Source: Macrostomum lignano (Eukaryota). From it: a DNA stretch of 64,000 nucleotides. The DNA lies in NCBI GenBank assembly GCA_002269645.1, contig NIVC01002373.1, positions 75,674 through 139,673 on the forward strand. Direction: 5' to 3'. The notes beneath the pieces are model-generated. The model was not told where the DNA came from, did not search any database, and saw only the letters and a list, made by a program, of their open reading frames with translations. Made by a program: the position numbers and the translations under genes. Positions 43,401-64,000 of the stretch are shown here, one piece after another; positions within the stretch are counted from its first letter, which is position 1; each line of letters opens with the position of its first letter.

Positions 43401-45989
43401 TAGTGCATAATCATAGCATATAATGTGGTTTCTAGTGCACATAGTGCTTAACCTTTTTTGACAAGTTTATTGTAAAATATATGGGCTAATTGTTTGTTTA
43501 TCTTATTTGCATTTATTAGGTATTTAATTTCTTTGTATATTCTCAAAATTGGACAACTATTTAGAATCAAATTGAATTAACCAAATATTCAGCTTGAATT
43601 AGAACTGAGAAGTTGGCAATCTGAAGATTTAAAAGTTGCTTTAATATAGGCAAAGATTTGGAGCAAATCAAGAGTTAAGTATTTGTATTATGGCTTACAA
43701 GTATAAATAAAGGGAAGGAATTGGGGATATATTAATTAGGAGATTAAGGGCTGAGAAGTTTGTATTTGAAGAATTGAGAGTTTTAAGGATTGTGGAATTG
43801 TGGCTCATAAATGAAAAATGGAATTTAGGATAGGATAACATGTGGAATGTCTTGAAGAAAGGCAGGGGTGCTTAAGCAGTTTTGAGCACATTGTGCTTAG
43901 ATTAAGTAGTGAGGCTTTTGGAGGCTTTAAGGCTTTAAGAGCCCTTGAGGCTTTAGGAGAAGTGGAGCATTAGGAATCAAGTTTATAGAACTTGGATTTA
44001 GGGGTATTAATTCCCACAAATTTGGAGGGATTTAGTTGGAATTTTTTCTGGGTGAATTTCATTGGACAAGAAGTAAAGATGCAAGCCTTTTGGTTGAGGG
44101 CTGCTAAAGGTAATGTGGCTGAATATTAAATGCCATGTGTTTCTAGCAGTGAGTATACATGTAGCTAGACACCCTATTGGAATAAAAGTTGAAAACCTGC
44201 AGATGCGCGCTTTAGAGTAGAGTCAAATTATTTTACCTTGCTTTAGCATTATTAGAGATGTTCCATTGCAATTGACGAAATTGTCCATTTCAATCTGTCG
44301 AAATCAAAATTCGATAACTTTCCGAAATTGAAATTGAACTTGAAATTTTCCAAAATCAAAATTCAGAAAAACAAAGTTTAATATGACTAACACTTACTTT
44401 TTTACGTTTTGATTTACTGCTTATGCAAAACAAAATACATGTATATGTAGCAGAAATTACTCGCTGTCTATTTTTAGCCACTTGACACTTTCGAAATTTT
44501 GACTTCCAATTTTTTTTAAAATTAAAATTTGCTCTTAAAAATTTCGAATTTTGGAAAATTGAAATTGAAATTTTGGAACATCGCTAAGTATTATAAATGA
44601 CAAGTGTATAGGCTCCTTCTACAGAGGTATTAGGACCCCTTCCATGTATATTATTTGCTTGAGCAGCAGCCAGCAAGGAAGGGCACCGTGCGCGCGCACT
44701 GCGCTTTAGAAAAATTTCAAATGTGTGCCGGACGCTGTCTGCAGTTTTACAACTTTTTCCTATAGGGGCTAGACATTCCACACATGTTTAATCATTGTAA
44801 TTCATGGTTTTACCAAAGTGCTCACCTGTGTGGCAGTTTTTTTGAGAAAATGGCAGCAAAAAAGCAACTTGCAACAAATGTTGGAACTTTTTGTCTTTAT
44901 GAATAAAGATTTTTATCATTGTTCCTTTAAGTATATTCTACTTATAAATGGAAAAATGAAAGTCAGTCCATATTTATAATTGCTTTGATAGCCATTTATA
45001 TAGAATGAATTCATTTAACTATCAATTAGCACTACTGGCAAGTGATTAATGAGTAGTGAGGTGGGCATATTATTGACAGAAATATTTGTATTTGGTATTT
45101 TTCAGTATTCAAATTGGTTCTGTCAGATATTTGAATCTGACATGGAATCAGTTCAAAAATTTTATATGACATGGGATACTTAAAACAAAGAAACAAAATA
45201 AGGATATAGCTATTGTTTGATTGCCTTTCAATAGCTTTCTTTGCTTCATAGAAAAAATCCAATTATTAATTTCTTTTATTAAAGATACTAAAGTACAATG
45301 TGTGTTCCTATCTCTGTCATATATTTTGGAAGTCTGACAAACAGACAATTTGCTATCCATCTGTTTCTACTAACTGCAAAAAACTATGAAGCTTTGCTTG
45401 TCTCGACATTAAGGAATGAAAAATGTGTTGAAAAAGTTGAAAATCAATACTTTACCTTAAAGCCTGTACTTTTTGCCAGAAGTAAACGCTGTAGTGGCTT
45501 TGTTAAAATTCAAATCTGTTTGTAAATGTCAATCCACTGGAGATAAGTGCATTTACTATACTTGTAAAATCATCTTTATGACATGTAGTTGATCCTACCT
45601 TTTCTAATACAAGTATAACTCATTTGTTAAATGGAGTTACAATTTTATTTTTATTGTTTTTGTATGTGGAGAATTCTTTTACTCAAAAGTACTTAGCAGT
45701 GAGGGGACTGAAGCCTTTGCCTGCACTTTCAACTCCTTAGGCTGCTCAGAACAATGCAAAGCGCAAGCTGTCTGCAGCCTCAGCGGCCACCGAATCCCCC
45801 GCGCCAAAGAAGTTCAGGCCAGAGGCTCCTAAAGGAACCGCAATTAGGAAGAAACTGTCCAAAACTGATGAGGCGGCGGCGGGCCCAGCTTCCGTAGCCG
45901 CTCGCGCCGGAAATTTGGAATTCGAATCGGCGCCAGCGGAGCAGCGGGAGAAGCGGCAGCAGCTGCAGACTCAGCAGCGACATCAGTAG
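40484..45989 (+). CDS. Putative host Lys-rich gene: exons 40484-40654 and 45741-~45984/45989 around a transposon-filled intron
   Basis: A phase-0 AAG|GTAGGT donor and a phase-0 CCTTAG| acceptor give ..KSKEKPEK|AAQNNAKRKLS..APKKFRP.. open up to the Polinton boundary. No recognisable domain. Confidence 0.4.
41046..41492. mobile_element. Non-autonomous DNA transposon, Mutator-like (9-bp TSD)
   Basis: ~35-bp TIRs GGCAGTTGTTATTTGTC.../...GACAAATAACAACTGTC; TSD TAACCAAAA at 41037-41045 and 41493-41501. Confidence 0.8.
41540..43148 (-). pseudogene. Degenerate mariner transposase, interrupted by a MITE
   Basis: Fragments in mariner order: MELTNNNFYAM, EALGIGLAVVTNILHNKLG, NETWVYQYNLETK (cf. DETWVYQYDPETK), LASYNFFLFPLMK (cf. 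LAPxDFFLFPxLK). Many stops and frameshifts. Confidence 0.75.
42525..43116. mobile_element. ~590-bp composite MITE (copy 1) with nested hAT-like MITE at 42726-43036
   Basis: TIRs CCCTATWGGAA..; 8-bp TSD ATGGCATA (42517-42524 and 43117-43124); inner TIR TAGAGATGTTCCGA. Confidence 0.85.
44172..44767. mobile_element. Same composite MITE family (copy 2, opposite orientation), nested hAT-like MITE at 44253-44586
   Basis: Reverse-complement homolog of copy 1 with its own 8-bp TSD GCTAGACA (44164-44171 and 44768-44775); inner TSD AGCATTAT/AGTATTAT. Confidence 0.85.
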
Positions 45990-46551
45990 TATACGTTTTT
46001 TTGACACAAAGCCGATTTCCTTATGGCGAAATACATAGTAAGTACAGGCCCAAAAAAATGGCAGAGTCCGAAATTTCATGTGCACGCAGTCTGAAATTCC
46101 GTGTGCACGCAGTCTGAAATTCCAAGTGCACGCTAAATATCTTTTACGCAACGTGATTATTCAGACGAATTGCATATCCACCTGTCCAAAATACAAGTAA
46201 CCAATTCTAACAATGGTGACACAAACACACTTCAAAGGATTCCATTCAAGACAAATTTACTCCAAAGCTATTCACACATTTCAAGTGTTATTGAAATATT
46301 GAAAACTTGCGAATATTATCACCCTTTTGAAGAAAGATAGTAAGTGATCTATTCTTGAGTGCCTATAGAATTTTTGCACCAACTTGAGCAGATGGTTTAC
46401 AGATACTATGTCAACAACCACGTCAACATGCTTCTTCTTTACTATATATATATATATATATATACGAACACACTGACACAGAAAATATTCAATAACTCAA
46501 ACCAAGTATACATTATACTACTTGTTCAACTATACGTACATCTTAAGAGAA

Positions 46552-47487
46552 ATGAAGCGATCACGTCAGCAGGAATTGGCCGAGCGCTATGTTAAACAAG
46601 GTAAGATAATCACCTACTCTAGTTCAGTTTTCTTTTTAGATTGACAGTTTGCTAGTTTAGTTTCTAGATTGATTGTTAGTTCGTTTTCTGTTTAGACCTA
46701 TCCTCTTTTAGCTCAGTTTACATTGATTCTCTGCTAGTTCAGTCTCTAGATTGATTCTCTGCTAGTTCAGTCTCTAGATTGATTCTCTGCTAGTTCAGTC
46801 TCTAGATTGATTCTCTGCTAGTTCAGTCTCTAGATTGATTCTCTGCTAGTTCAGTCTCTAGATTGATTGTCTGCTAGTTCAGTTTCTGTTTAGACTGATT
46901 CTCTGCTAGTTCAGTTTCTATATACATTATTTACATGCACCTATACCAAATTTTCCCTCATCTTATCCATTATTACAGCATTCAAGAATGGTGTCTTCAC
47001 GCGGCCACCTCCAGATCAGTGCAAACGCATTTGCCATGCCACCACCACATCCAATTCTGCTGCAAGAGCATCATACTACTCTACATCTCTCGCCAAAGTA
47101 ACCTCGATTCATGTCGAGAGACAGACAACTGAGCTAGATCGCATTTACACAAGAACTGATGTTATTCAGTCAATTAGGCAGCAATCGAACCCACGACCAA
47201 CTGACCAACTGCAGTATGCACCACCACCATCACCAACCAGCTACAATGACCCAACAGAGCAAGCTTGCAGTGGACCTACAAGTACCAAACCAACGATAGC
47301 AAATGAAACACCGTCATCATCAATTGCTATTTCTACCCAAGTTCAACAGCTGCTAAACTCACCAATTATTGTACAGAAGGACATCAAGTCTGTAAAAGTC
47401 TCTCAAACAAGCACAGGCTTCTACCAAGTAGAATTAACAAAAACCTGTAATACAACTCAAGTATTTGAGTATTGGGACCTATCTTAA
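46552..47487 (+). CDS. Spliced ORFan (~185 aa; exons 46552-46600 and 46979-47487), Ser/Thr/Pro-rich
   Basis: ATG, phase-1 G|GTAAGA donor and TTACAG| acceptor give a stop-free 168-codon second exon; the intron contains a 28-bp tandem repeat. Confidence 0.55.
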
Positions 47488-48015
47488 AAAGACATTTTTT
47501 CTAAATCTTCATCAAATTTTGCCAGCAATATGTCCAAGTAATTGCTCTTTTAGTATATATCAAACAAGTATGTAATCAATAATATAATCTCTATAAATTC
47601 ATTATTCTAAAAAATTCTCTCAATTTTATTCATCATTCATTGAAATTATTTAATTCAATATAAAGTCAATATCCTGTACAGTTATCATTAAACAAAAATA
47701 TTAATCCATGCAAATAAACTTTTTCAATATTCTTAAACTTGTATTAAATGCTTCTTTAATTTTTTTCTTACAAACTAAAAATGTAATAATGGTACATATT
47801 TAACAACAAAAAATTATATACAGTATTTAACTACAGTTACACTAATCAATAAAAATGATACAGTAATACAAAAATACTAAAACACAACACAAATGCAAGT
47901 AAATATATAATCATAAAATGCTAGTTTACTTTTGCAAGAAAAATATTAATACAACAACACTCCACTCAGGAAAACATACAAAAATATTAAAGCAAATAAT
48001 TGTAATAAAAGAAAA

Positions 48016-48052
<37 letters not shown>

Positions 48053-48460
48053 AAATATTTACAAAATTGTAATCAAATCCACATAAGACAAGAATTAGTA
48101 AATAAAAAACTAAATATTTTCAAATATTAAATGTACTAATTAAGTTTTTGTTTAAAAAATATACTATTTGCTTTATTATACACTATATATTTTTCTCCAT
48201 CTATTGGGTTTAATATTTCTAGTGATCAAAGCTTTTTAAACAATCATTTTCTAGGTTTTATAAAAAATATATAAAAAAGTTATATGTCTAAATGCTTCTT
48301 ATAATTTTTATATAATGAATGAAAACTATGAAAACTATTTTTTATTACAGTTAATCAACAGAAAATAAAGGAGATAGGCAACTTTTGAAAAAGTAAATAA
48401 AAAGTAAAAGTAATTTCAGTTCGAAAAAGAAAGCGTCAAAAATAAACACAATCAAAGTAA

Positions 48461-49014
48461 TCAATTAGCAACTAGAGTTGCGTCCGAATCTATGGTTGAT
48501 TCCTCTAGCCTACTCAAGCCATGCTGAGTGCTTGCAACTTCTGCTTGATTTAATCCATATGGCGTCGATGTAACTATTTTAGCTATTCGACGAGGAGACT
48601 GCCAGTTGTCATTGTCAATTGTGCCCGAGGAAGAACCACAATTGGTAATAGGTGCTTTATTAGGAGTTACAGCTGACACACTTGTCAATGCCGTCTCTTC
48701 CATCATTTTAGTACCACCAGTAGCAGGTGAACTAAAAGTAATTGAAAGACAGTTAACTTTTAATTAATAATATTCTTTTTACAGTGTATCAAAGCCAAGA
48801 CCAGAAAAATAGCTTACATGCTCTTCTTCCAATATCGCAATCGAAATGCGACAACAACAACGCACATGACAGCAATGACAGCTACAATAATAACCTGAAC
48901 CAGACCAATTCTTTCGGTTTGGCTCACTAATTTGTCGATATTGCTCACTAGCTTACTAATAGATTCCGCATTTCCCTGAACTAAAATTACAACTTTATTA
49001 GTTTGGGGTACCAT
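48461..49014 (-). CDS. Spliced single-pass membrane protein (exons 49014-48818 and 48731-48461; a further 5' exon is possible)
   Basis: TM segment IGLVQVIIVAVIAVMCVVVVAF followed by basic RLRYWKK. An 86-bp GTAAGC..TTTTAG intron joins the two ORF-track ORFs in frame. Confidence 0.6.
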
Positions 49015-49334
49015 TTTCTTCTAAACTAAATAAAAATATGCAAGACAAACAAAAGAAATTCTCTAAAATAAAAGGCACACCTATAACAATAATCCAGCTC
49101 TAGACTCTAAACTATGAATCAACGTAAAGAAAATCTCCGTTTCAAAAATAAATTTTTTATTATATAAATATAACAAAAAATCGTAAACTAATACTTTGTA
49201 ACTAATTAGAAATATTAAGTTTGCCAACTGTTAAACTTAAATACTTGAGCAAAATATAGGTATGGATGTAGGTACGATTAGCTACATTAATTTGTAAAAA
49301 TTATCTTTCTTAAGCATGCGGAAAATACGTTTCT

Positions 49335-50065
49335 TTAGCCATGGTCTGGCTTTTGCCTCATGATTTAGCCGTATGCTCCGACTTTTGCCTCAACAGTATG
49401 ATTTAGTCGTATGGTCCGACTTTTATCCCAACAGTATGATTTAGCTGTGGTCCAGCTTTTACCTCAACAGTTTTTTAGCCGTGGTCCGGCTTTTTTTGCA
49501 ACAGTATTATTTAGCTGTGGTCTAGCTTAAAACTGAATCAACAGTGATTTAGTTATAGTCCAGGCTTAACTACCTCAACGATGATTTAGCTATAGTCCAG
49601 GCTTAACTGTCTCAACAGTAATTTTAGCTGTAGTCCAGACTTAACTGCCTCAACAGTGATTTTAGCTGTGGTCCAGGCAACTGTCTCAACAGGGATTTAG
49701 CTGTAGTCCGATTAGCTTAACTGTCCAGTTATTTAGCTGTGAGCCAAGCAGCAGCACCCGTCTCAACAGTGAGAATTAGCTATGGTCAGCTTTACCTCAA
49801 CTGTGATTTGGCTGCTGTGGTCTAGCATAACTGACTCAACAGTAATTTTAGCTGTAGTCGTCCAGCTTAACCACCCGTCCAGTTTTATAACCATGGTCCA
49901 GCTTAACCACCGTCTCAACGAACAGCGATTTAGTCGTGGTCCAGCTTAACCGTCTCAACGTACAGTGATTTAGCCATGGGTCTAGTAGCAATTAACCGTA
50001 TCAATAGTGATTTAGCCGTGGTCCAGCTTAACTGTCTCAACACAGTAATTTAGCTTAGTCCAAAC
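49335..50065. repeat. Degenerate ~37-bp tandem array between divergent viral genes
   Basis: Roughly 19 imperfect copies of ATTTAGCTGTGGTCCAGCTTAACTGTCTCAACAGTG. Confidence 0.9.
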
Positions 50066-50678
50066 AGCATTTGTGTGTCAACTGCACTGACTGCATGCGG
50101 TTATAGCAGCGGCAGTCATTATAGTCCCAACAAGCTGCGCGTCGCAGCATGATAGTGTAACTCTATATAGCTTCTGCTCAATATAGGACTGCAAAAGCTG
50201 AGTTGCAACTATACCTTTTTCTGTTTGAAAAGTAACACTCTATATATAGGTTACTCAAGCAATCTCTTGTCATCGTGCGAGCTAAAAAATTCCAACATGC
50301 AAGCAAAACTTTCAATAAATTAATTTCATAGCACCGCGTGCAGCTTATTTTTACTCTAAAATCCAAGATTGCTAATTTTTCAAGTCGCAAAATATTTTAA
50401 TTACATTCTACTTGAGAACAAAACCAATCTAATGAAGCAACAACCAGCAGTCTTCTTATTAAACGCTTGCCATCGTGTTACTCTTGCAAATTTATAACTA
50501 GTGTGCCTAAGATTCATTAATTTTATTGTATAAAATATCAACCTGCATTTGCGTAAAATTAGACCTAATTGTGCAACCCACAATAGAAACTTATGCCACC
50601 TTTGGCACGCAACATGCCTTAATCAGCACGCAACAATTAAATTTGTTTACTAGTTCACAAACAGCATGCAATGCTTGC

Positions 50679-50686
50679 TATAAATA
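50679..50686 (+). promoter_or_regulatory. Canonical TATA box (TATAAATA) upstream of the SSB-like gene
   Basis: Located 86 bp before the ATG at 50765. Confidence 0.4.
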
Positions 50687-50764
50687 CAAGACCCGAAATG
50701 GTCAATTTTTCATGAGCTCAATCATTACAGCAAAAGAAATACTATATTCAATTGCTTGTAAGAC

Positions 50765-51991
50765 ATGGCAGCTTGCATCAAGACGGAGTCAATTGTACGC
50801 TCCGACTCGAGTCCGATTTTCTACGTTGGAGAGCAGTCTACAACCACGACTGGTTCGTCCTGCCAGTTTCGATCTATTGCGTGGAAACCATCAATCGAGT
50901 GTACAAAATGGTACCCAATTATATTGCAAACCAAGGCTCCAATGGAGCTTTTTCGTGGAATCGCAGAAAGGCCAGAGCTCGATCATCCGTCTTGCAGACA
51001 CGACTCTCGCGACGCAGTAAGTGTCCAATTTCATCCAGACAGCTGCGATAAGGAACTCTTCCACTCTCTCCGGTGAGCACCATATTTAATTTATACAATT
51101 AATTTTAAAAACTTTTAAAAATTTAAAAAACAAATATTCATAATTTATATAATGTTTTGCAGTCAAGTCGAAAAAGGTCTATCGGGCAAGTTGAACGAGA
51201 TTCAAGATGCTCGACCCTTGGCACGACTAACAAAACCAGCTCATCAGCATGCTAACGACGTCCTCGAGTTTGTGCCTCAACAATGGCTGGCTATAAAGCC
51301 TGCTTACCCTTGTGCCACAATCAGGATCAGCAACGATCATCCACACGGGAAGGAGGTGTCCATTTCCGATTTCAAAGGTGTCAGCGGTACCTACCAAATG
51401 ACAGTGCAAGCAACGAGCTTGTATTGTCCAAAAGGCAGCCTCGTCTGGCGCATTACATTCGCTGTGCGCTCTCTAACGCTCATAGAATCTTCCGACAACA
51501 TGTTGCAGCGCCTTGACATGTTCAAGGGAGTGCTTGCACACCTACCTGCGACCAAGCCAGCAATTAGAAGCAGGAGTCCGTCCCCAACGTCTACCCATGA
51601 CCAAGAAGAAGCAGATGAACAAAGCCGGCAGAATTCAAGCCAGGTGACGCCTGCCAAGTCACCTGCAAAGCGTCGGTCTACCACCACCGTATCGAAGAAG
51701 TCGACTCCATCGAATGCAGCGCCAGCATCTATTGAACCGGTGGCTAAAAAGCAAGTTCGCAAACGCAGCGGTGCAAAACAGCAAAACAATTCTGCCGAAG
51801 CTGGTGCAGATGGCACAGACTGGGTGAAGGCACCACCAGCAAAGATCTTGGTGAGTACACCTGCCTCTGGAACCCGGGTAGCGTCCAAGGAGACAGCATT
51901 TTTAAAGCATGCTGCTGCTGCTGCTGCGGACGCTACTACAGCTAGCGTGTATTCATCGGACGATTCGTACAGCAGCTCTGATGATGAGTAA
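50765..51991 (+). CDS. Spliced gene (50765-51072 and 51163-51991, ~378 aa), putative OB-fold ssDNA-binding protein with acidic tail
   Basis: A 90-bp AT-rich CG|GTGAGC..TTGCAG| intron joins two ORFs in frame. IILQTKAPMELFRGI..AVSVQF..VQATSLY...WRITF resembles T7 gp2.5/NCLDV-type SSBs, and the protein ends SSDDSYSSSDDE. The function is inferred. Confidence 0.55.
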
Positions 51992-52199
51992 CAAAATTTT
52001 TGACTAATTTTATCCAAGTTTTAACTAACTTAATTCCACTATATTTATCAAATTTTTGGCTAGGGAAATATTATTTTTAGGGAAAAGCTCAAAACATTTT
52101 TGCTACTCCTTGTACGCCAACCAGGTTTTGTTACTTAATATTAGAATTTACAATAGTATAGTCTTGTTAATTTTTTTTATTATTTACTTTCCGTTTTAG

Positions 52200-52757
52200 C
52201 GACTTGTCCTATTAATAGTTACTGCGAGTCTGAAGCTGCGTCCGTTTGAAAAATTTGATTTAAAGCAGACCAAACAGAAGCTACAGACCAGAAACCGGTT
52301 TTGCAAACTATTCCTAAGCCGACCAACAATGCTAAAGACAATTTATTCAAACGCAAAAATCCAACTTTATCCAGCAGGAAAACTAACTATATATGGCTGT
52401 AAATCAAATTCTCAGATAGTTTCAGTTTTACGATTTATCAACGATACTATTAATTGTGTAGATTTTGATTCAGTAAAAATTCAGAGCAGTACCTATGTCG
52501 GCTTTATTGGTCATCTTTGGCCAAAATTCGGTTTCTCTAGTCTAAAAAGATATGCAGGCTACTATTCGAATTATCTGGTTGGATACGATGCAGAAAATTT
52601 CCCACAAGCAGTTTCTGTTAGATCAAAATCAAAACCAAGACTTTTTTGTAACATATTTTTTTCGAAAAAGTTTGTTATTATGGGCGTTCAAAACACTCAT
52701 GAATTGAATAATATTCTTAACCATGTCAAGGATTTTTTAATCTCTGTTAATAACTAA
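52200..52757 (+). CDS. Divergent TATA-binding-protein-like domain (3' exon; the frame is open 43 codons upstream of the annotated ATG)
   Basis: Colinear with both TBP repeats: IVTASLKL..KFDLKQ (NIVSTVNL.CKLDLKT), IQLYPAGKLTIYGCKS (LIFSSGKMVCTGAKS), FDSVKIQS (FLDFKIQN), YDAENFP (YEPELFP), KPRLFCNIFFSKKFVIMG (KPRIVLLIFVSGKVVLTG). Confidence 0.75.
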   Translation, partial: RLVLLIVTASLKLRPFEKFDLKQTKQKLQTRNRFCKLFLSRPTMLKTIYSNAKIQLYPAGKLTIYGCKSNSQIVSVLRFINDTINCVDFDSVKIQSSTYVGFIGHLWPKFGFSSLKRYAGYYSNYLVGYDAENFPQAVSVRSKSKPRLFCNIFFSKKFVIMGVQNTHELNNILNHVKDFLISVNN

Positions 52758-52976
52758 ACTTAACAAGTAAACAGTTGCTGTCAAATCGCAGTTGCGATGC
52801 ATTATTTTACAAACATTTTGTCTTGTTTTCATTTCTTTACCAATTGTTTTCTCTAATAGTAAACGTGCCAGCTATAACCCAATCTAACTAACCAAATCAT
52901 CATTTTTCTTACAGCCGCAAATGACAAACCGGATCATCTATTAATATTATGCTCGATACGCTCGTTGTCGAGCTAG

Positions 52977-53693
52977 GTGCACACAATGCCGCGTGCACAA
53001 TGTCAAATCTGCAGAAAAAAGTTCAGCAATCAAGCTGAGCTGCATGCTCACTCGCATGGTGATTGTTTTTCGCCGGAACGATTACTGGTCGGATCACTGC
53101 AAAACCTGATCGAAAACCCACCAGATGGATGGTCCATCACTTTGCGCGAGTCAGCTCATCGTGGTCGGGTAAATTTTGTCGAATTTACTCCCACTCTTGA
53201 ACAACAAGACAGCAGCTCTGGCGAGTTACTTCCTGGCGAGTTGATTGCGTCTTTAAGAGGACTAATATTTAAAATATTGGAAAAAATTGGCTCACCTAGT
53301 TTATTAATAAGAGTCTGCTTTCACTTGAAAGTGACACTTTTTCGACCGAAAGCAGCAGCAGACGACAACGATGGCTCGAGCAGCGAAGAAATCATCTCGG
53401 TCTATTTTAATACCAACATTGCGACAATATCATTTGATGAGACGATTGCAAACAGTGACATGCTGTTATCTCCCGAGGCCTACAATGACTGGTTCGCACG
53501 CGTTATTAATCAGCTATTAACAAAAATAGACAATTTTCAATCTCGAGGCAGTAATTGGCAATATAGAGCAATCGAGCAGCTAGACTTGATGCTCTGCATT
53601 TATCGCAAAAGCCATGCAACCACACTGTTAACAAATACGTCCCACGATGGTGTGGGAGCGGGCGGCGGGGGTGGTGGTGGTGGTGGTGGTGGT

Positions 53694-53731
<38 letters not shown>

Positions 53732-56700
53732 GCGCGGCGAGTCCGGTCCAGTCCGGTCCGGTCCAGTCCGGTCCGGTCCGATTAAACAGCGAGCGTTTAA
53801 AGTTCCACTCTCAATCGGGCGCAAAGCTGGAGCAGTACTGCTTCTAAAGCCGCACAGAGCAAATCAGTACGACTGTTTTCGCTACTCAATATTGGCGAGT
53901 ATATTTCATCCTTGTGTGCAAGATGCGAAAAGGAAAGACAGCTATGTGCAATGGATGAGAGAATTTAATTTTGGTCGACAAGCTAATGGACCAGCTCGCC
54001 ATTCAAGTAGATCGTACAAAAAATTCTGCCGACGCAATCCGAGAGTTAGTCTACGAGTATTTGTGTGGGATCACGACACCAAGACGAGCACATTATTTTA
54101 CTCGCACAGAAGCAAATATGATGGCGATCGTTATTTTGCGAGCTGTCTGTTTGTGCCGCGGTATGACGATTTTGAATTTGGTCATTATTTACCAATTCGC
54201 AATTTGAACCGGTTATTGAGCAAGCGAGGTAAACAGCGACGATATTGTCCGGAGTGCACGGCTTCGTTTCCTTGCTCAACTTCGTGGGACTATATTCTCA
54301 AGGAGCATTGCTGTGAAGGTGGTAACGTGTCATCATCATCAGCTTCTAATATTGAATGGAGTTCGGATTTTGTGCCTCAAATCCGCGAGATTCGCCATCG
54401 ACCACAAGAAGTAATGCCGAAACCAGAAGACGCAATTTTAAAATTTAAATCACACGAGGCAAAACTGCCTTCGTTGTATGTCTTGTACGCAGACATGGAA
54501 TGTCTATGTGCACCTGCAAATAATGAAGCAAATGTAAAAAAGACTTGTAATTCGAAGCCGCTTGAAGTCCACGTACCAATTTGTTTGGCCTATCGTCTGA
54601 TAACTTGCCAAGGTTTGCAACTGACACCAAAACTAGCTGCAGCAGTTGGAATGGGCGACAAAAAACCTTGTGGAGTAATTTACTCGCAAAAAGATGGTGA
54701 GAATTGTGTTCGACTGTTTTTACGCAAACTTCAGACCATTGCCAGCGAGATTTGTCTGCATGCTCAGACTGAGACGTTTACTCCCTTGCTACGTGAATAT
54801 CTCAATATTAAATCCAACAAGAAGCTTCAGCAGACTTGCCAACTATGCAAGCGAGTATTTGACAAGACTGAAAAAACTGTGCTGGACCATTGTCACTTGA
54901 CTGGTTTGCCTCGTGGCATAGTTTGCGTCTCGTGTAATCGAAAGTTAAGTTTAAAACGATACCGATTGATTGTCTACTTTCACAATTTGGCTGCCTACGA
55001 TGGTAAATTTCTTGTGCGAGAGATTTACAACGTGTTTTCTGGAAACAGTGTTCAACTAAGCGTGCTACCAGAGACTCGTGAACGCTTCAAGACGTTTTCG
55101 CTAAAGTTTACATTGCCAAGTAATCAACACAAGAATGGCTTTGTGCGGTTTGAGATTTGTTTCAAGGATACTTTTGCCTATTTATCGACAAGTTTGGCTA
55201 CTCTAGCCGATCGACTGCTTCCCGAGCAACTAGTGCATACAAAAGAGTTGTTAAAAACGTATCCAAAGTTGGAGCTGGCAACTCTACGACAAAAGGGAAT
55301 CTATCCCTACTCTTTTTTGGACTGCGAGGAAAAATTGGACAATGTGACACAGTTACCGCCGAAGGAGAATTTTTTCAACAAGCTTACAATGTCGCACTGC
55401 ACGGAAGAAGATTATGGTCGAGCTTGTGTAGCTTGGAATCAGTTCGAGTGTCAAAATCTTCGAGATTATACAACAGCCTATTTGTTGCTTGATGTACTGC
55501 TGCTATGCGACGTCTTTGAAAATTTTCGTCAGACTGCGCTGCGTGAATATGGTCTCGATCCGACTCACTTTTTGGGTGCACCGATGTTTAGCATGGTAGC
55601 CTGCCTGTTGCGGGTAGACGAGCCAATAAAATTGTTTACCGACGCATCTATGTATGCCGAAGTTGAGTCCTCCATTCGAGGCGGTTTCAGTTTTGGAACG
55701 CGACATGTAACGACGGCCAATAACCCGAGTGTAGCAGAGTACAGAAGCGAGTTTGATCGACTTGATCCGGACTTTGAAAGCTTGCGAAAAAATGCACCAT
55801 ATGGAACTTATCTAGCATACTTGGACGCTAATTCGCTCTACTCAAGCTGCATGATTCAACCTTTACCAGTTGGCGATTTTTTATGGCTATCACGCGATGA
55901 AATTGGGAACATTCCAACCGATAGTGCGAGTGCAGACTATTTGGAAAGCCCAAGTGTTAAAAGTCAACTATTGGATTGGTTAGACAAGTTTTGTAACGAC
56001 GAACAAGGAGCAATGTTCACTGTGGATCTATATTATCCTCGCTTCTTGCATGACTCGACAGCAGATCTTCCGCTTGCAATTGGTCACGAATTAGTTGGCG
56101 AAGACCGACTTAGTGAACAGATGAAACTGGACTGGTTTTGCCTTCAAAGAGAACTCAATCCAGATCGTTTTGAAAACGCAACAAGCTATGGTGATGTGAA
56201 AGCTTTCAGCAGCTCGACGCGAAAATTGATTGGGTCTGTGCTTCACAAAAAGAAGTATGTTGTGCATCATCGAGCTCTTCGATTGTATCTAGAATTGGGA
56301 ATGCGCGTAACGCGTGTTTACCGCGTAATTCGATTTACAGAACGACCAATTTTGCGATACTATATTGAACACAATATTGAGCGGCGTAAAGTAGCAAAAA
56401 CTGAATTCGAACGCGACTTTTTCAAGTTGCTAAATAATGCTCTTTTCGGAAAGTTTCTGCAACGAGTTCGCGATCGACTCAATTTCCGCATGTGTTCAGA
56501 AGCTGAAAAATTGGAGAAATATGTTTCTCGAGAAGATTTTCTTGACGTAGTAATTTATAATGAAAGTCTGGCAGGAGTTAGCCTCGCTCCACGTCGTGTT
56601 GCGCTAGACAAACCGATTATAATCGGTGCTGCAATCTTAGACATTGCAAAGACTCTTGTATACGACTTTTATTACAATCATGTTCAGATTCATCATTCAC

Positions 56701-57224
56701 TAGCAAGTGCTCGGGTACTCGCAGGAGATACTGATAGTCTTATGCTGGCTCTAGTTATGCGTAAACCGGACGAGACTCCTTACGATACCTTGTTCAAAGA
56801 TTTGGCAGAAGAAGGTTTGCTAGACACGAGTAACTATTCACCATCGCATGCTCTGTACTCGACAAAGCACAAGGGTCGACTTTTGGCGTGGAAAGACGAG
56901 TTTAAAGGTTGTATACCACTGGAACTGGTATTTTTGCGACCAAAAAATTACTCCTTCGTGTATGCCAATGGAACTATAGATCAAGTCTCGCGCTGCAAAG
57001 GTGTCTGCAAGACTGTAGCACAAAGTTTAAAGCATCAAGACTATTTGAGAGTTTTGCACAAGCGACAACTTGTGTTTTCGCGCATGCAGTCGATTCGTTC
57101 TAGAAAACAGAAAGTTTTTTTAATGCAACAAAGAAAACTTGCACTAAGTTTTTTCGACACGAAGCGATCTTGGACAGACTGCATCGATTCGCTGCCCTTT
57201 GGTCACTGGCGCTTGACCAATTAA
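52977..57224 (+). CDS. pPolB: Protein-primed family B DNA polymerase with N-terminal Zn finger/terminal-protein region and endonuclease VII-like insert
   Basis: Exo I YADMEC, Exo II FHNLAAYDG, Exo III YLLLDV, Pol A YLDANSLY, Pol B KLLNNALFGK, Pol C GDTDS. CxxC..DHCHLTGLPRG..C..CN is an EndoVII-like motif. Confidence 0.97.
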
Positions 57225-57513
57225 CAATATGCTCTGATCTCTTTTGTTGTACAAAGTATAAATAGCATGCTATAGAAGACTGTAAGCCATCAATAGTTTT
57301 TTCATTGATCATAATTTTACAATAAATAAATGGTGCGTGCATTCATTTAATCTATAATTTTAGCACTTTTTTGTGCTTAATTATTTGAAAGAGTATAATT
57401 TTTTATAGTTAGATTCGTATGACTAGGTTGTAGTGACCGTAAATGTAATTGCTAACGCTCATGTTTCAAGGAAAAAACTTTTTTAAACTTTCAGCTACAA
57501 TTGAATCGACAAC

Positions 57514-57999
57514 ATGAATGCCGAGCAGCAGCAACAACAACAACAGCAGCAGCAGTACCAACTTTTAGTGGAACGCCTGTACGAATCGGCAACAATTCCG
57601 GCCCGAAAAACTGTCGGCTCGATTGGTTACGATCTTTGCGCAGGCGTTGATGGCACTATTCCAGCCTACGAGTCCCGCAGTGTACGAACCGGACTTAAAG
57701 TCCGGTTACCGGCTGGTACGTATGGCAGGATTGCGGCCCGATCGAGCATGGCTCTGCGCGGTATCTTTGTTGGCGGTGGCGTAATCGACCCCGACTATAC
57801 AGGGGAAATCTGTATAGTTTTATTCAACTACAGCTCGGAGGATTTTGATTACTACGCCGGGCTAAGTATCGCGCAACTCGTTCTTGAGCAGGCTGTGCTT
57901 GCTTCAGTCTATGCGATTGAAGCCGATAACTCCATTCGGAAGATTGAGCCGCCGACCAAGCGGCGCGGTTTTGGCGGCTTTGGAAGCACTGGTCAATAA
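57514..57999 (+). CDS. dut: Trimeric dUTPase
   Basis: All five motifs: GYDL, GRIAARSS, GVIDPDYTGEI, IAQLV, RGFGGFGSTG. Confidence 0.95.
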   Translation: MNAEQQQQQQQQQQYQLLVERLYESATIPARKTVGSIGYDLCAGVDGTIPAYESRSVRTGLKVRLPAGTYGRIAARSSMALRGIFVGGGVIDPDYTGEICIVLFNYSSEDFDYYAGLSIAQLVLEQAVLASVYAIEADNSIRKIEPPTKRRGFGGFGSTGQ

Positions 58000-58064
58000 T
58001 AATGATAATGATAATAAACTGATTTTTTTTTATTTGGTGATTGGGCACTATGCCTTGTAAATGC

Positions 58065-58073
58065 TATAAGCAA
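58065..58073 (+). promoter_or_regulatory. TATAAGCAA candidate late-promoter motif (also at 59243, 60286, 61504 and 62886)
   Basis: Each copy lies 50-61 bp upstream of an ATG. Confidence 0.55.
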
Positions 58074-58124
58074 TTTTAAAATTTATGCCAAAAAAAAAAT
58101 ATATATATATATATATGTTGTAAA

Positions 58125-58544
58125 ATGTCTCCAGCGAAAGATCGAGGTTTTAAAAAGAAAAAGAAGAGCAGTCGTATAAAGAAGAAATCTATTAGAAAGA
58201 TTAATAAAAAGCAACAAGGTTTTGGTGTCGTAAATTGGTTAATTAATCATTTACCATTTGAAGCGCATTTACCCGGCGGATATCAGTTTTGTGGTCCAGG
58301 TACGCAACTGCAAGCTAGGCTAGCAAAAGGACAACGAGGAATCAATCGACTTGACAATTTGTGCATGCTTCACGACGTGGCCTATGATAAAAATTCGGAC
58401 GTGCAAGAGAGATTAAAAGCTGATAAGCTATTAGAATCTGGTGCACGAGAAATTGCCCACGATCCGTCTACTGGTTGGAAAGAAAAACTAGCTGCGAAGT
58501 TGGTTACCAAGGTTATGCAAGTTAAGCAACGCTTTGGTGCTTGA
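58125..58544 (+). CDS. Parvovirus VP1u-type phospholipase A2 domain protein (adintovirus PLA2-like)
   Basis: Ca-binding loop YQFCGPG and catalytic DNLCMLHDVAY; basic N-terminus. Confidence 0.9.
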   Translation: MSPAKDRGFKKKKKSSRIKKKSIRKINKKQQGFGVVNWLINHLPFEAHLPGGYQFCGPGTQLQARLAKGQRGINRLDNLCMLHDVAYDKNSDVQERLKADKLLESGAREIAHDPSTGWKEKLAAKLVTKVMQVKQRFGA

Positions 58545-58546
58545 AA

Positions 58547-59236
58547 ATGCAGCAGCCATACAATATGCAACTAGCTCACGATTCTACATTTATTATTGCT
58601 GGACCTTCAAACTCGGGTAAAACTGAATGGACGTTGCGTTTGTTGACTGAACGAAAAGAATTATTTGATGAAAAACCGCGTCGTCTTGTTTGGTGTCATG
58701 GATCAAGTTTGAAACCAGACGATCAACAACGAATTAGAACATGCTGGCAAAAGAGCGGTCTTGACCCTATTGTTTTTGTACCCGAATTCATACCACAGAT
58801 GATTAATCGTTTTTTACCACACGATTTGGTTGTTGTTGACGACTTGCAAAGCGAGATTGCTAAGTTGCCAGAATTTACTAGTATGTTTACAAAGCATGCG
58901 CATCATATCCCTTTGACTTGTCTGTATCTTTGTCAAGGTCTTTTTAACAAGTCTGATCCCGAAGCACGCATGCGAAGTTTATCAGCTAGTTATATTTGTC
59001 TAACTCGTAGTGTGCGCGATCGAACCACAGTTGAGCATCTCGGTCGACAAATGTATCCGCGTAATAGTAGGTTTCTAGTGAATGTGTATGAAGACGCAAC
59101 AAATAACAAACCTTTTTCATATTTATTCATTGACCTGCGACAAATGACACCCGATTTTTTACGATTGAGAACAGGAATCTTTCCTGGCGATGAGCAAGTT
59201 GTCTATACTCGTGAATGTGATGCAAAGTTTGTGTAA
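58547..59236 (+). CDS. A32/FtsK-like DNA packaging ATPase
   Basis: Walker A GPSNSGKT, Walker B LVVVDDL, FTKHAHH, RSLSASY, YLFIDL. Confidence 0.95.
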   Translation: MQQPYNMQLAHDSTFIIAGPSNSGKTEWTLRLLTERKELFDEKPRRLVWCHGSSLKPDDQQRIRTCWQKSGLDPIVFVPEFIPQMINRFLPHDLVVVDDLQSEIAKLPEFTSMFTKHAHHIPLTCLYLCQGLFNKSDPEARMRSLSASYICLTRSVRDRTTVEHLGRQMYPRNSRFLVNVYEDATNNKPFSYLFIDLRQMTPDFLRLRTGIFPGDEQVVYTRECDAKFV

Positions 59237-59293
59237 TATTATTATAAGCAAATTATAAACTGTTGTCAATATTAGTTTGTGTTTTATTTCAAA

Positions 59294-60283
59294 ATGAGTT
59301 TTTACGTTTTTTTGCCGTCAAACGATATCAGTTACGAAACCAACTCGCCTAATGAATTTCGAGTACGACTAACTGAACCAATAAATTTATTGAACGGATT
59401 CTTCGAGGTTGCACTAGTTGAATTACTTTGCCATGGAGCAATTACGACCCCAAATGCTCATCGTGAGCGTCGATTTGAAGTTCCATATTTTGCGGACATT
59501 GACTCAATAATACGATTAAAGAAAAACTATTGGGGTCGCGTTTGGGCAGAGGCAGACTTGGATGCTTACGTTTCCTGGCAACCGTCTGGTACAAATGAAA
59601 AATTTGCCTGGCTTTTACGAAATTCAGGCGAAAAAACTATTGGATTAGAACTACCGGTTACATTTATGGACGCTTTCAAATTTGACTCTTGGAAGAAACT
59701 TTCTGGACTTGTCTCGGAAAAATTATCAAAACCTACCGCTGGTAGTGTACAACCACCGGATGGATCATACTTGGATGTGGTAAAAAGTCTCGACAATACT
59801 CTAGCGCTAGTACCTGAGAACTATTATGTTTTTTATTGTGTTCTATCGCCTGGTGAAGCTATACGACTTGTTTCGCATGGAGACTATCTTCAAAAAACGG
59901 AAGGAGAAGTGTACATCAAATTACACCAATATTGGTTGAGAAATCGTATTTGGCGCATTAACAAAACCTACTTGGATGCTGTGCTACCTTCTCCGATGCC
60001 TAGTAAAACGGTTTACATGTACTGTTACACAGACATAATCGAGTATCAAGCAGTGGGAAGTACATCAGTACCGTTGCTTCGAGTTGTGGAACTCCAACAA
60101 AAGAAAAATGGAGAACTTGTACGCGATAGCAGTGCATTGCAAACACCCTACTACTTGAAAACAAATCGACAACAAATTCACGAGATTTCGATTCGACTAT
60201 CGGACCAGCGCGGAAAACCATTTAATTTTCATCCGGGAGCACACGTTGTTGTCGTACTGCATTTTAGACACAGGTCAGACTAA
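59294..60283 (+). CDS. Minor capsid (penton-like) protein
   Basis: Polinton penton termini FYVFLPSN..NSPNEFRVRL..FEVALVEL and YCYTDIIEYQ.VG..PLLRVV..EISIRLSDQRGK..VVLHFR. Confidence 0.9.
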   Translation: MSFYVFLPSNDISYETNSPNEFRVRLTEPINLLNGFFEVALVELLCHGAITTPNAHRERRFEVPYFADIDSIIRLKKNYWGRVWAEADLDAYVSWQPSGTNEKFAWLLRNSGEKTIGLELPVTFMDAFKFDSWKKLSGLVSEKLSKPTAGSVQPPDGSYLDVVKSLDNTLALVPENYYVFYCVLSPGEAIRLVSHGDYLQKTEGEVYIKLHQYWLRNRIWRINKTYLDAVLPSPMPSKTVYMYCYTDIIEYQAVGSTSVPLLRVVELQQKKNGELVRDSSALQTPYYLKTNRQQIHEISIRLSDQRGKPFNFHPGAHVVVVLHFRHRSD

Positions 60284-60339
60284 TTTATAAGCAAAGATTA
60301 ATGTGTAAAAAGAAAATTTTGTGAATTTTTTTTGTAAGA

Positions 60340-60768
60340 ATGAACGAACTAACAGAAAAAGGAAAACGAAATGCTCGCTCATTGTGTCAGTGTGCTTTTT
60401 TACTACAAATTGTTTATCGGCTAAAGCATCCAAAGCAGAGAAAAAGTTTTTTACAAACACTTTCAGAGTCGGAGATACGATGTCTAGTAGACTTTCTGTT
60501 TAATATTATTAGTGGACGTATTAAAATTAGTAACTGTAACAAAAGACGACTTGAGAAGCATCGCAGATATATACGTCAGCTTTTGGAACAGAAGACTCCA
60601 ATTACTGCAAAAAGGAAAATACTTGTCCAACACGGAGGATTTTTACCTTTTTTGGCTCCAATTATTGCCGCTCTACCTGCTATAAGCACTGCGCTTGGGA
60701 TAACGTCTGGAGTAGTTGGTACCGCCGCGGGAGCAGCAAATTTAATACGATCAATTCAACGAAAGTAG
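60340..60768 (+). CDS. Polinton basic core-type protein with adenovirus pX(mu)-like C-terminus
   Basis: KRKILVQHGGFLPFLAPIIAAL resembles adenovirus pX GGILPLLIPLIAAA; basic central region. Confidence 0.75.
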   Translation: MNELTEKGKRNARSLCQCAFLLQIVYRLKHPKQRKSFLQTLSESEIRCLVDFLFNIISGRIKISNCNKRRLEKHRRYIRQLLEQKTPITAKRKILVQHGGFLPFLAPIIAALPAISTALGITSGVVGTAAGAANLIRSIQRK

Positions 60769-60776
60769 TAGGAATA

Positions 60777-61466: not shown

Positions 61467-61564
61467 TTTGTTTTAAATGTTTTAACAAAATTGATTCGAG
61501 CACTATAAGCTTTTTAAAAAGGTTAATTTTGTTTATGAAAATATATAGTTTAATAAGACAAACC

Positions 61565-61753
61565 ATGTCATCTATCTGCCAAAAACTTTTGATTCGTCTC
61601 TGTGAGTTTTTTTGCTTAAAATCCGAATGTGTGCCGTTTCTGGGAGAGGAGCACAACGAGGATACTGACGGAAATTCGATCGAGGCTTCGTTCTTTTGTT
61701 GCAATTGGCATACGAATAGCATCAATCTAACTCATGATGAAGCGAGTGCGTAA
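61565..61753 (+). CDS. Small Cys-containing ORF (62 aa)
   Basis: ATG is 61 bp after a TATAAGC motif; overlaps the integrase start. Confidence 0.3.
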   Translation: MSSICQKLLIRLCEFFCLKSECVPFLGEEHNEDTDGNSIEASFFCCNWHTNSINLTHDEASA

Positions 61754-62894
61754 GGAAATTGAAGAATTTTTGACGGATGCTTTTTTTAACTTGAACAAAC
61801 CTACTTCATTTAGTGGTAACAAGACTATACTTGTTCGTGAAGTGCGTAAAAAGTTTCCACAGATTACGAACAAAGTTGCGAAGCGCGAAGTTGATAATTG
61901 GGTGCGATCAACAAATGAGCATCATTTATTTCGAAAAACACGACGAAACTTTCCAACTCCAAAAATTAGTGTACCACCAGTTGCAAAGTTTCAGTTTCAA
62001 ATCGATTTGGCAGATTTACCTCGATACAAGACGGAAAATCGAGGTTATCGTTACATACTTGTTCTGATTGACTGTTTTACTAGAGTTGTACGACTAAGAC
62101 CATTGCGTACAAAGAAGCCTTCAGAAGTTAGTCAAGTATTACTAGAGATTTTTCGAAGTGGTTTTAAGCCTGTTTATTTACAAGGTGATGCTGGTATGGA
62201 GTTTCTCGGAAGAGCTACACGTCAAATGCTGAAACAGGAAGGAGTTCGATTTTTTGTTAGCCAAAGCAATTACAAGGCAAGCATGGCTGAACGATTTATC
62301 CGCTCGCTAAAGGAGCGTCTATTACGATACTTTCGAGCAAAAAATTTACCTCGATGGTTTGATATTTTGCCACAATTGGAAGATAATTTCAACTCTAGTC
62401 CTCATCGATCCTTGAGTGGAGAAACACCAAAACGTGTAGAGACAGACCCACATTTACAAGGAATTTTGTGGGACAAAATGTTTGCGAAGTCGTACACTAA
62501 AAAGAATGAGAATAAATTTAAAGTTGGTGATTGGGTTAGAATTACACGACGTCGAGGAACATTTGAAAAAGGATACACTACGAGTTGGAGTAATTCAAAA
62601 TATCGCATTCACCGTGTACACTTGACAGAACCGCCAATGTACGAATTAGCGGACCCTGAAGATGGATTTGAAGTGCTGAAAGGAAGGTTTAACCAAGCGG
62701 AACTAATGTTGGTAAACGAGACAGATGAAACACCTAATGAAATTGAAAAAGTTATTGAAACTGATCGATCGAAAAATGGAAGTCGTCTGTATCTAGTAAA
62801 ATGGAAAGGTATGCCAATCTCAAGAAGTCAGTGGTTAAACGAAAAGGATCTTGACGCAAAGACTGCTAAACTATTTTCTAAAGTGTATAAGTAA
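61734..62894 (+). CDS. INT: Retroviral-like DDE integrase with C-terminal chromodomain
   Basis: FQIDLAD, LQGDAGMEF, KASMAERFIRSLK; chromodomain EIEKVI..YLVKWKG...SQWL. Confidence 0.95.
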   Translation: MMKRVRKEIEEFLTDAFFNLNKPTSFSGNKTILVREVRKKFPQITNKVAKREVDNWVRSTNEHHLFRKTRRNFPTPKISVPPVAKFQFQIDLADLPRYKTENRGYRYILVLIDCFTRVVRLRPLRTKKPSEVSQVLLEIFRSGFKPVYLQGDAGMEFLGRATRQMLKQEGVRFFVSQSNYKASMAERFIRSLKERLLRYFRAKNLPRWFDILPQLEDNFNSSPHRSLSGETPKRVETDPHLQGILWDKMFAKSYTKKNENKFKVGDWVRITRRRGTFEKGYTTSWSNSKYRIHRVHLTEPPMYELADPEDGFEVLKGRFNQAELMLVNETDETPNEIEKVIETDRSKNGSRLYLVKWKGMPISRSQWLNEKDLDAKTAKLFSKVYK

Positions 62895-62935
62895 CACATG
62901 AATTGGGATTGCATGACGATGAGAAGACTGTTGAA

Positions 62936-63394
62936 ATGGATCCTATTTTTGCTTTTTATTCTGGTCCGAATAGATCTGCTGAAGGTGGAGGTGGATCTGG
63001 CATTCCTGTTTACGAAGGTTACGGTTTTTTGTCAAATTTGGCGGACAGATTGGTGTATCCTGTACTACGCAACGCAAAGAAAGATTTCTTGGATCGTGGT
63101 CTGGAGTATTTGAAAAGTGCGACAGCAAAAATTGGTATGGGTCGGAAGCGTCACTTGGACACAGAATCGAGCGAAGAGATGTTTAATACACCTGCAGTCT
63201 CGAGACCAAAGCGAAGGAAAAGAACCAGTGGAGTGGCTATAAGCTTAGGAAAGAAGAAACGACAAAAGAAACGACGAACAAGACAGTGTGGAAAAGGACG
63301 CGTGAACAAACGAAAACGCAAGAGGGTAGGTGGTAAAAAAAAACGTCGAACTGCTACTGCAAGCAAGAAACTTTTTAGTCTGTTTGAAAAGTAG
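62936..63394 (+). CDS. Basic virion protein with GxG motif and amphipathic helix
   Basis: YEGYG-FLSNLADRLVYPVLRNAKK followed by an Arg/Lys-rich tail. Confidence 0.7.
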   Translation: MDPIFAFYSGPNRSAEGGGGSGIPVYEGYGFLSNLADRLVYPVLRNAKKDFLDRGLEYLKSATAKIGMGRKRHLDTESSEEMFNTPAVSRPKRRKRTSGVAISLGKKKRQKKRRTRQCGKGRVNKRKRKRVGGKKKRRTATASKKLFSLFEK

Positions 63395-63395
63395 C

Positions 63396-64000
63396 ATGAA
63401 TCATTTGCTTGGACCTGATATTGCTGCTCTTAAAAGTGAATTGTCGCTATTTGATCAAAGTCCTGTCAGTTTAGTGTTTTGGATAATCGGTATACTAACA
63501 TTCAACCGCAACATGGTATTACAAAAGGATCACCTATCGAATTTGAGAGGTTGTGCCTGCAGGCGATTTGTATTTGGATCTACAAGAAACTGTGCTCACG
63601 GTATGCTTCAGCGTTAGTGATAGTGAAGGTGAACCTATAGATGCAACAAAAAATTTTGTTTGTTTGAATAATTTGGCTATTGGAACATTGTTTGAAGACG
63701 TTCAATTTACTATTGGCGATACTGTAGTTTGAAGGTGGTAGTTTTATGTATCCATACAAGGCTATGCTTCTTACATTACTGGAATACGGACATACAGCTC
63801 AGAAGGCTGGTTTACTACCGTGGGATTTTACAAGGATACAGCTGGTAAAATGAATGCAACAAGTGAAAACGATGGACGAACAAAGAGCAGCAGGCGCTTA
63901 TTGCTAACAATAGGCGGTGCACTGTATCGGGGCCGTTATTCTTGGATTTGTTTCGTCAGCCTCGGTATCTACTATCAAAGACACCACTGCGGATCAAGCT
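63396..64000 (+). pseudogene. Major capsid protein (double jelly-roll) 5' part with multiple frameshifts
   Basis: KSELSLF, SPIEF, YLDLQET, YPYKAML..LLEY, FYKDTAGKM and DLFRQPRYLL..LRIK occur in order but in different frames. Confidence 0.85.

Follow-up and report, generated by a model that had tools for sequence, protein, structure and literature searches.

Cellular TATA-binding proteins and TBP-related factors (TBP/TRF, PF00352) share a two-repeat saddle, with a pair of phenylalanines, a proline and a stirrup glutamate in the C-terminal lobe, and TBP and TFIIB form a textbook, DNA-dependent pair. Many of the NCLDVs and mirusviruses that bear a TBP of their own also carry their own polymerase. 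Their TBP-like proteins are divergent, with an N-lobe signature that is weakened or lost (PMC7221094, section 12), and most of the viruses encoding them carry their own TFIIB, as far as the text of that study describes. The beta- and gamma-herpesviruses use a viral protein of TBP fold (vTBP) with a polar DNA face, which serves a variant TATA box on late genes with host Pol II; its KSHV representative, ORF24, has all four intercalating phenylalanines, lacks the TFIIB glutamates and belongs to a six-protein complex, according to the available text of PMC12529657. Finally, adintoviruses, Mavericks and MELD viruses have in common pPolB, an integrase, PLA2-like and protein X (pX)-like genes, an ATPase, a protease and terminal inverted repeats (TIRs) (PMC8502044, available text). 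The first-pass annotation knew of no TBP-like gene described in such elements, which holds in part: the legend to Fig. 5 in Starrett et al. 2021 (PMC8502044) lists one in a MELD virus or related element, within a section on non-animal datasets, and it is the only direct mention found. The text of that paper contains no promoter, splicing or TBP analysis, and one of its supplements has no TBP match. In addition, the main text of Ravarani et al. 2020 (PMC7221094) on viral TBPs does not name Polintons (its supplements could list some), and a term search of the main text of three Polinton/PLV papers (PMC12220804, PMC11131425 and 10.64898/2026.06.19.733378) returned no TBP.

The window analysed here (64,000 nucleotides of Macrostomum lignano contig NIVC01002373.1, with positions counted from its first letter) contains a Polinton that encodes a real, selected TBP-like domain (52200..52757, +) with a candidate cognate late box. 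This protein has the saddle and the C-lobe residues of cellular TBP/TRF, but differs from them in its low identity (~20%), in the loss of the first Phe, the replacement of the second by Tyr and the loss of both Asn, in several polar residues of the DNA face, and in its place as an apparent terminal exon in a mobile element. With the herpesvirus system, it shares the TBP fold, the polar DNA face, a sequence pattern in which a variant TATA box is confined to late genes and, presumably, host Pol II; unlike ORF24, it keeps the Glu, and no partner gene was recognised in ~19.6 kb. Pfam likewise gave no member of a herpesvirus-type, six-member preinitiation complex with direct Pol II binding among 13 ORFs, several ORFs having no assignment. 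It is also a divergent viral TBP with a weakened N-lobe, as in NCLDVs and mirusviruses, but without their TFIIB: PF00382 has no match in the ORFs of the element (a very divergent TFIIB could escape), and its 15 matches in the genome, on 7 contigs, are in no case multi-copy; the host TFIIB frame is split by introns. Our results suggest that what is new here is a TATAAGC box on the capsid-side genes, matched to the Polinton TBP.

The element is a recently inserted Polinton. Its left TIR of ~104 bp, starting with AGTAGT (45985..46088, +), follows the left copy of a 6-bp target-site duplication, GACATC (45979..45984); other copies begin at exactly the same base within unrelated flanks, and two empty host sites hold a single copy of the 6-mer followed by the sequence found to the right of the element end on contig C84. 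An inverted match of the left TIR (104–106 bp) closes the far end of the C84 copy (~19.6 kb) and of the C424 copy; the right TIR and right duplication are known from such copies, the right end of the window copy lying outside the view. The TBP-like exon is ~6.2 kb inside the left end, and the alternative of a host-gene fragment outside the TIRs, which the first-pass annotation had named as a refutation, fails. Note that the right flank of the C84 copy continues the left flank of the window, so that near-identical copies appear cross-joined in the assembly, and copy numbers and flanks need care.

Downstream of the exon and on the same strand (+), the element encodes a protein-primed PolB with an endonuclease VII-like insert (52986..57224; PF03175 E 4e-20, PF02945 E 1e-11), a dUTPase (57514..57999; PF00692 E 7e-29), a parvovirus-type PLA2-like virion protein (58125..58544; PF08398 E 3e-9) and, abutting it, a packaging ATPase candidate (58547..59236) with a visible Walker A and a Pox_A32 score below cut-off (E 0.046). 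These are followed by a putative minor capsid protein (59294..60283; no Pfam match), an adenovirus protein X-like core protein (60340..60768; PF05829 E 2e-6), a retroviral-type integrase with chromodomain (61734..62894; PF00665 E 5e-8, PF00385 E 3e-7) and the start of a putative major capsid gene (63396..64000; no Pfam match), which leaves the window. In another copy, this last frame reaches 441 aa and is followed by a C5-type protease (Peptidase_C5 E 0.033). We presume the ATPase, protease and major and minor capsid names partly from gene position and sequence pattern. The pPolB, dUTPase, PLA2-like, pX-like and integrase genes are above the Pfam cut-off; pPolB and the integrase, with the TIRs and the 6-bp target duplication, place the element among the Polintons/adintoviruses. 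Near its left end there are also a spliced-looking gene (46553-47487, +), with a short first exon, a GT donor and then a 170-codon exon, and a spliced-looking minus-strand frame with a hydrophobic stretch (48461-49020, −).

The stop-free frame of 185 codons at 52200-52757 (+), which ends 228 nt 5′ of pPolB, encodes the full two-repeat TBP fold. Taken as a single sequence, its translation matches Pfam PF00352 with 31.2 bits (E 2e-7; cut-off 22.9 bits), and phmmer against PDB finds TBP 1mp9 (E 3e-4). AlphaFold2 returned a model of pLDDT 93.4 with two strand-helix-4-strand-helix repeats; this model is not blind because its 21-row alignment includes host TBP, whereas the single-sequence Pfam and PDB matches are. 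Indeed, 20 of the 21 aligned members match PF00352 at E<=0.01. With the model as query, the best 38 rows listed by Foldseek were all TBP chains (TM 0.68-0.77), and VIA-align superposed it on TBP with Z 16.7 and an rmsd of 2.3 over 164 residues, the first non-TBP row scoring Z 8.6. In the Atlas, the clusters closest to it are families of viral TBPs (0.95-0.97), BFVD also gives hits to viral TBP-like proteins, and hhalign of the clade-A TBP against host TBP gives 96.9%. Thus, Pfam, AlphaFold2, Foldseek and VIA all agree with the earlier reading by eye of both saddle halves in a frame immediately upstream of pPolB; the profile and structure searches it had proposed gave clear TBP matches, and its refutation by absence of a TBP fold does not apply.

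A search of genome G000 with the window TBP gave 83 matches among 96 candidates, 26 of them at 99-100% identity and further sets at 32-46%; each of the 20 divergent loci retrieved had pPolB in the same 10 kb, and the frame is free of internal stops in all 26 near-identical copies. Between subfamilies L050 and L052, dN is 0.195 and dS 1.17 (dN/dS ~0.17), comparisons with the window's own subfamily being saturated at silent sites, and by this codon comparison the TBP-like exon is under purifying selection. Outside this genome, HMMER against 1.84 billion representatives returned 5 matches, of which four, from ENA and Logan samples, are relatives at 40-43% identity; the fifth, a 7048-aa tick repeat protein, is a repeat artefact. 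None of 35 candidates from a word-indexed protein search with the single TBP protein was scored, the 19, 18 and 33 pattern matches from IMG/VR scans (alignment A1, host TBP and alignment A3, respectively) were not confirmed, and the only one of 75 retained from a JGI metagenome scan was a phage contig, which we rejected. That the exon is a captured and decaying fragment of host TBP without function could be imagined from its missing start codon and from a splice junction unseen in RNA contigs (see below), but such a fragment would hardly show ~20% identity to host TBP, a long branch of its own with 100/100 support, purifying selection, a position fixed across at least five subfamilies (39-46% identity) and relatives in four samples from elsewhere, while the host TBP genes lie elsewhere. 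We therefore give this reading a negligible probability, dN/dS and synteny having already largely refuted it. As a separate observation, in 18 of the 26 near-identical copies the distance from the TBP exon to the integrase is ~3.1 kb shorter than in the window copy, and the two such short-spaced copies that were aligned have lost most of pPolB; a non-autonomous derivative has spread with its TBP exon kept open.

The residues facing DNA were scored on 11 clade-A rows. Invariant in all 11 are Y57 (LYP), F134 (ENFP), F153 (IFFS), E132, N151 and T63, with P135 and Q55 kept in 10; in yeast numbering, we take F134 to be F190, F153 to be F207, E132 to be E188, Y57 to be F116 and P135 to be P191. The first intercalating Phe (F99 position) has become a small residue (S/A/G) followed by R/K-P, so that the intercalating set of clade A consists of two Phe and one Tyr instead of the canonical four Phe; the register at this first stirrup is uncertain by two residues, and in either register no aromatic is found there. 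Both canonical Asn positions are changed (N69 reads L/Q/H/A/M/S around the site, N159 reads S/T), as had been proposed. The proposal of retained intercalating aromatics stands for Y57, F134 and F153, and falls for ‘RNRF’, which is no conserved DNA-contact motif, its F34 varying among relatives (F,S,S,P,P,N,E,D,S,D). Other positions have moved to polar or otherwise different residues (L114 to Q in 10, V122 to T in 11, L205 to N in 11 and T124 to F/Y in 10 of the 11 rows), and R141 and R147 are also fixed, so that Q55, T63, N151, R141 and R147 each occur in 10-11 of the 11 rows. The C-lobe is changed too, in its second Asn (S/T) and in a Leu that became Asn, but its acidic stirrup for TFIIB is kept (E132 in 11/11; position 130 is D in 7, N in 3 and S in 1). 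For the basic N-lobe patch that in canonical TBP serves TFIIA, TAF1, Mot1 and Brf, a crude K/R count of the H2 segment gave 2 in the window protein against 6 in host TBP, with 1-6 across five clade-A rows and 6 in one subfamily.

These substitutions can be read in two ways. The viral TBP could be a decoy or modulator that uses its kept acidic stirrup to titrate host TFIIB or other TBP partners and damps host or early transcription; host TBP would then read the element's boxes as weak variants of TATA. With the first Phe and both Asn gone, DNA binding could indeed be weaker, as it is in the TRF2-like paralogue of the host, and the E-x-F of the stirrup is the most invariant motif over four Polinton lineages and the host. 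A decoy, however, would not be expected to fix new polar residues at its DNA-face positions, which are not randomised here and recall the polar interface of KSHV ORF24 (PMC12529657, available text). As judged from the alignment, the DNA face is rebuilt with fixed polar residues and not eroded.

The promoter side of the element provides a second line of evidence. TATAAGC occurs on the + strand at 58065..58071 (60 nt 5′ of the PLA2-like gene), 59243..59249 (51 nt 5′ of the putative minor capsid gene) and 60286..60292 (54 nt 5′ of the protein X-like gene); at 60681..60687, inside the pX gene and 96 nt 5′ of ORF 60777, a place where other subfamilies do not have it; at 61504..61510, 230 nt 5′ of the integrase; and at 63238..63244, inside ORF 62936 and 158 nt 5′ of the putative major capsid gene, the last two being found at the same place in L046, L118, L119 and L120. 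Thus, of the 10 genes that follow pPolB, 6 have the box 51-230 nt upstream and 4, including the packaging ATPase, are without it. For a motif first picked by eye, and with ‘late’ assigned from gene type, the 57225-64000 region holds 6 sense copies against 0.38 expected (P 3e-6) and no antisense copy, while 45985-57224 holds none against 1.0 expected. Over six pooled late regions, TATAAGC was the top 7-mer (20 against 1.29 expected under a second-order Markov model, one region having a local duplication and orthologous sites not being independent), and four early regions contain none. The same genes carry 5, 4 and 5 boxes in three additional copies, which belong to divergent subfamilies. The element shows no enrichment of TATAAA, and the 9-mer TATAAGCAA is not significant over the whole window (3 against 0.79 expected; reached in 6 of 100 shuffles).

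As described in the available text of PMC1636458, TBP's C-proximal lobe reads the TATA box's 5′ half and the N-proximal lobe the 3′ half, and wild-type TBP did not select G at box positions 6-7. TATAAGC keeps TATA and alters positions 6-7, while the protein has retained Phe-Pro-Phe in its C-lobe and no longer has the first Phe of its N-lobe; the altered half of the box (G6/C7) would fit the remodelled N-terminal lobe, which is suggestive. Altogether, the box and the polar substitutions of the DNA face support the earlier suggestion that the element may carry its own promoter factor of altered specificity. PDB titles record crystals of wild-type TBP on variants with a single G(-26) or C(-25), and host TBP may therefore read TATAAGC weakly. 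These crystals, like the canonical box of another Polinton lineage (lineage D, see below), are in line with the decoy reading, which nevertheless leaves a non-canonical box limited to late genes without a reason; we consider it unlikely.

The first-pass annotation overlooked the probable splicing. The frame lacks an ATG ahead of codon 44 and begins directly after a pyrimidine tract and AG, and therefore looks like an exon, the last one of the upstream gene, and not like a free-standing ORF. The gene that would hold it has a canonical TATA box, TATAAAT (50679..50685, +), and not TATAAGC; this putative promoter lies 86 nt 5′ of exon 1, and TATATAAGG occupies its place in the early gene of two other subfamilies. 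An imperfect array of ~40-bp repeats further 5′ (49325-50050), also inside the element, could be an enhancer or an origin. Exon 1 (50765..51072, +; 102 codons + 2 nt) is an ORF conserved at 25-38% in relatives and is joined to exon 2 in RNA-type contigs across intron 1 (51073..51162, +), a frame-keeping GT..AG intron of 90 nt; this joint was seen in contigs from two of three probable RNA runs and not in a fourth run, whose kind is unknown. Exon 2 (51163..51991, +; conserved at 25-35%) encodes a folded domain and a Lys/Ser-rich linker, and would end with the stop at 51991 if intron 2 were retained. The predicted intron 2 (51851..52199, +) has a GTGAGT donor after K-I-L and a pyrimidine tract with an AG acceptor, both at codon boundaries, and its removal would fuse exon 2 in frame to the TBP exon. 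Indeed, each of the 14 clade-A loci inspected has a GT(G/A)AG donor at K-x-L|V-S and a YAG acceptor. None of the four runs showed the intron-2 junction, and one RNA-type contig crosses it unspliced; none of these runs is on record as RNA, and they may include DNA. Since they are assembled contigs, the missing joint is not proof of absence. Similarly, a weak test among long database proteins recovered the fused form in none of 8000 candidates. As predicted from these splice signals, the upstream gene probably makes a 378-aa form without the TBP domain and a 517-aa form with it.

For the exon-2 domain, Atlas gives weak leads (0.84-0.90) to DUF5871, DUF2738 and Pox_I3, taken as viral ssDNA-binding families, while AlphaFold2 models it poorly (pLDDT 44), VIA finds no match among 48,161 chains, and PDB, Pfam and PHROG have none. 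An ssDNA-binding identity is thus a weak lead only. If it were right, the spliced product could be a replication or genome-organising protein, whose ssDNA-binding domain and TBP saddle would act on AT-rich termini or replicating DNA with a secondary effect on transcription. The predicted junction to such a domain, the place of the exon in a replication block before dNK and pPolB (with TBP in frame with dNK in one subfamily) and the similar upstream-gene/TBP layout of lineage D would agree with it, but the candidate domain lacks any Pfam, PHROG, PDB or fold match, no alignment is obtained between the upstream genes of A and D, the TBP ORFs of clades B and C stand alone and carry an ATG of their own, and neither the kept TFIIB-type Glu nor the box is explained. 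This makes a mainly replicative role quite improbable in our opinion.

We consider it fairly probable, from the sequence features taken together, that the protein would serve as a viral TBP for late promoters, in concert with host TFIIB and Pol II and comparable to herpesvirus vTBP. Host TFIID would transcribe the early gene from its ordinary TATA box, and splicing of intron 2 would give a protein ending in the TBP domain. The C-lobe, with both Phe and the Pro kept, would read TATA, and the remodelled N-lobe would accept the G-C disfavoured by host TBP. The kept acidic stirrup would then recruit host TFIIB and Pol II to TATAAGC and switch on the virion genes; we infer this recruitment because the element has no TFIIB or polymerase. 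A weakened basic patch of the N-lobe might also lessen control by host TBP regulators, and the outcome would be a switch from early to late genes that resembles the TATT/vTBP system of the beta- and gamma-herpesviruses. Several observations stand against this late-factor reading, namely the intron-2 junction unseen in 4/4 runs and unspliced in one RNA-type contig, the fused protein missing among long database proteins (in a weak test), the choice of the box by eye, the non-significant 9-mer and the non-independence of orthologous boxes, the 4 of 10 late-side genes without a box and the box before the integrase, the H2 basic count that is low in the window protein and 6 in one subfamily, the changes that also affect the C-lobe together with a possible weak reading of the box by host TBP, and the canonical TATAAAT of lineage D and the lack of a clear box in clade B.

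Other Polinton lineages of the same genome were found with the PF00352 profile, which gave 150 scored matches among 330 candidates. The 12 best are host TBP and a TRF2-like gene, each located on three contigs, and among 20 further loci, 18 have Polinton genes and 16 have pPolB at ~30% identity; these Polinton loci form clade B and type C, with free-standing TBP ORFs that have their own ATG and keep the first Asn. One clade-B protein agrees at 189 of 190 residues with a protein that NCBI lists for Macrostomum lignano. Lineage D, chosen as a TBP-less control, also carries a short TBP-like frame, which Pfam missed and the A1 profile finds (E 6e-10 among 750 ORFs; hhalign 87%); it gave 91 matches among 93 candidates, has no ATG and shows a possible donor-acceptor pair. 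The shared box of this lineage is the canonical TATAAAT (15 against 1.53 expected), and no clear box was seen in clade B (best TATAATA, 5 against 0.62) or C. A tree of 22 rows, built without archaeal or giant-virus TBPs, puts A, B and C and the host sequences each on a side of their own. The TBP gene, found in all four Polinton lineages examined in this genome, may be an overlooked and widespread part of the tool-kit, and standard annotation will miss it in other Polintons because it is an exon that lacks an ATG or has diverged too far for Pfam.

We also put forward, tentatively and as a possibility that falls somewhat short of probable, a one-protein, herpesvirus-like late switch in animal Polintons, in which an alternatively spliced early gene would supply a TBP co-evolved with a lineage-specific TATA variant and acting through host TFIIB/Pol II, with a fused ssDNA-binding domain possibly tying it to replicating DNA and a gene that is possibly widespread. 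The question bears on how Polintons time their capsid genes and on whether animal Polintons are autonomous nuclear viruses. A TBP and a seven-base box can be tested directly with one small protein and one oligonucleotide. If the pairing is true, it would be a natural altered-specificity TBP in which a changed lobe matches a changed half of the box, useful for understanding TBP-DNA recognition, and it would also offer an orthogonal promoter-factor pair.

Several minor observations concern the related elements and the flanks. Lineage D (L106-L115; contigs C261, C416, C976, C1395 and C4 of G000) is a short Polinton-like element with an integrase and capsid, protease and ATPase candidates; no match to pPolB lies within 20 kb of it. 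The clade-B gene immediately 5′ of TBP (L088:4305-4817 and equivalents) has a TATATAAGAA-type box and no Pfam match; its N-terminal ‘IDFQGF’ recalls, in our assumption, DEDD-type exonucleases, and this gene and TBP face pPolB tail to tail. In one clade-A subfamily (L045 and L057; contigs C297 and C362), TBP runs in frame into a deoxynucleoside kinase (dNK; 460-473 aa), while other clade-A subfamilies have a separate dNK (PF01712) and that of the window has none. At L041-L043 (contig C272), the upstream gene pair is present twice, in inverted orientation, flanking a truncated element, as in a fold-back rearrangement. Outside the Polinton, the window contains long imperfect inverted repeats (42525-44767; 82-89%) that are fold-back-like, and two host repeats, namely a tandem array with over 130 units of 21 bp from 23216 onward and a 15-bp array at 36865-37923 that reads as a (GEAVI)n frame.
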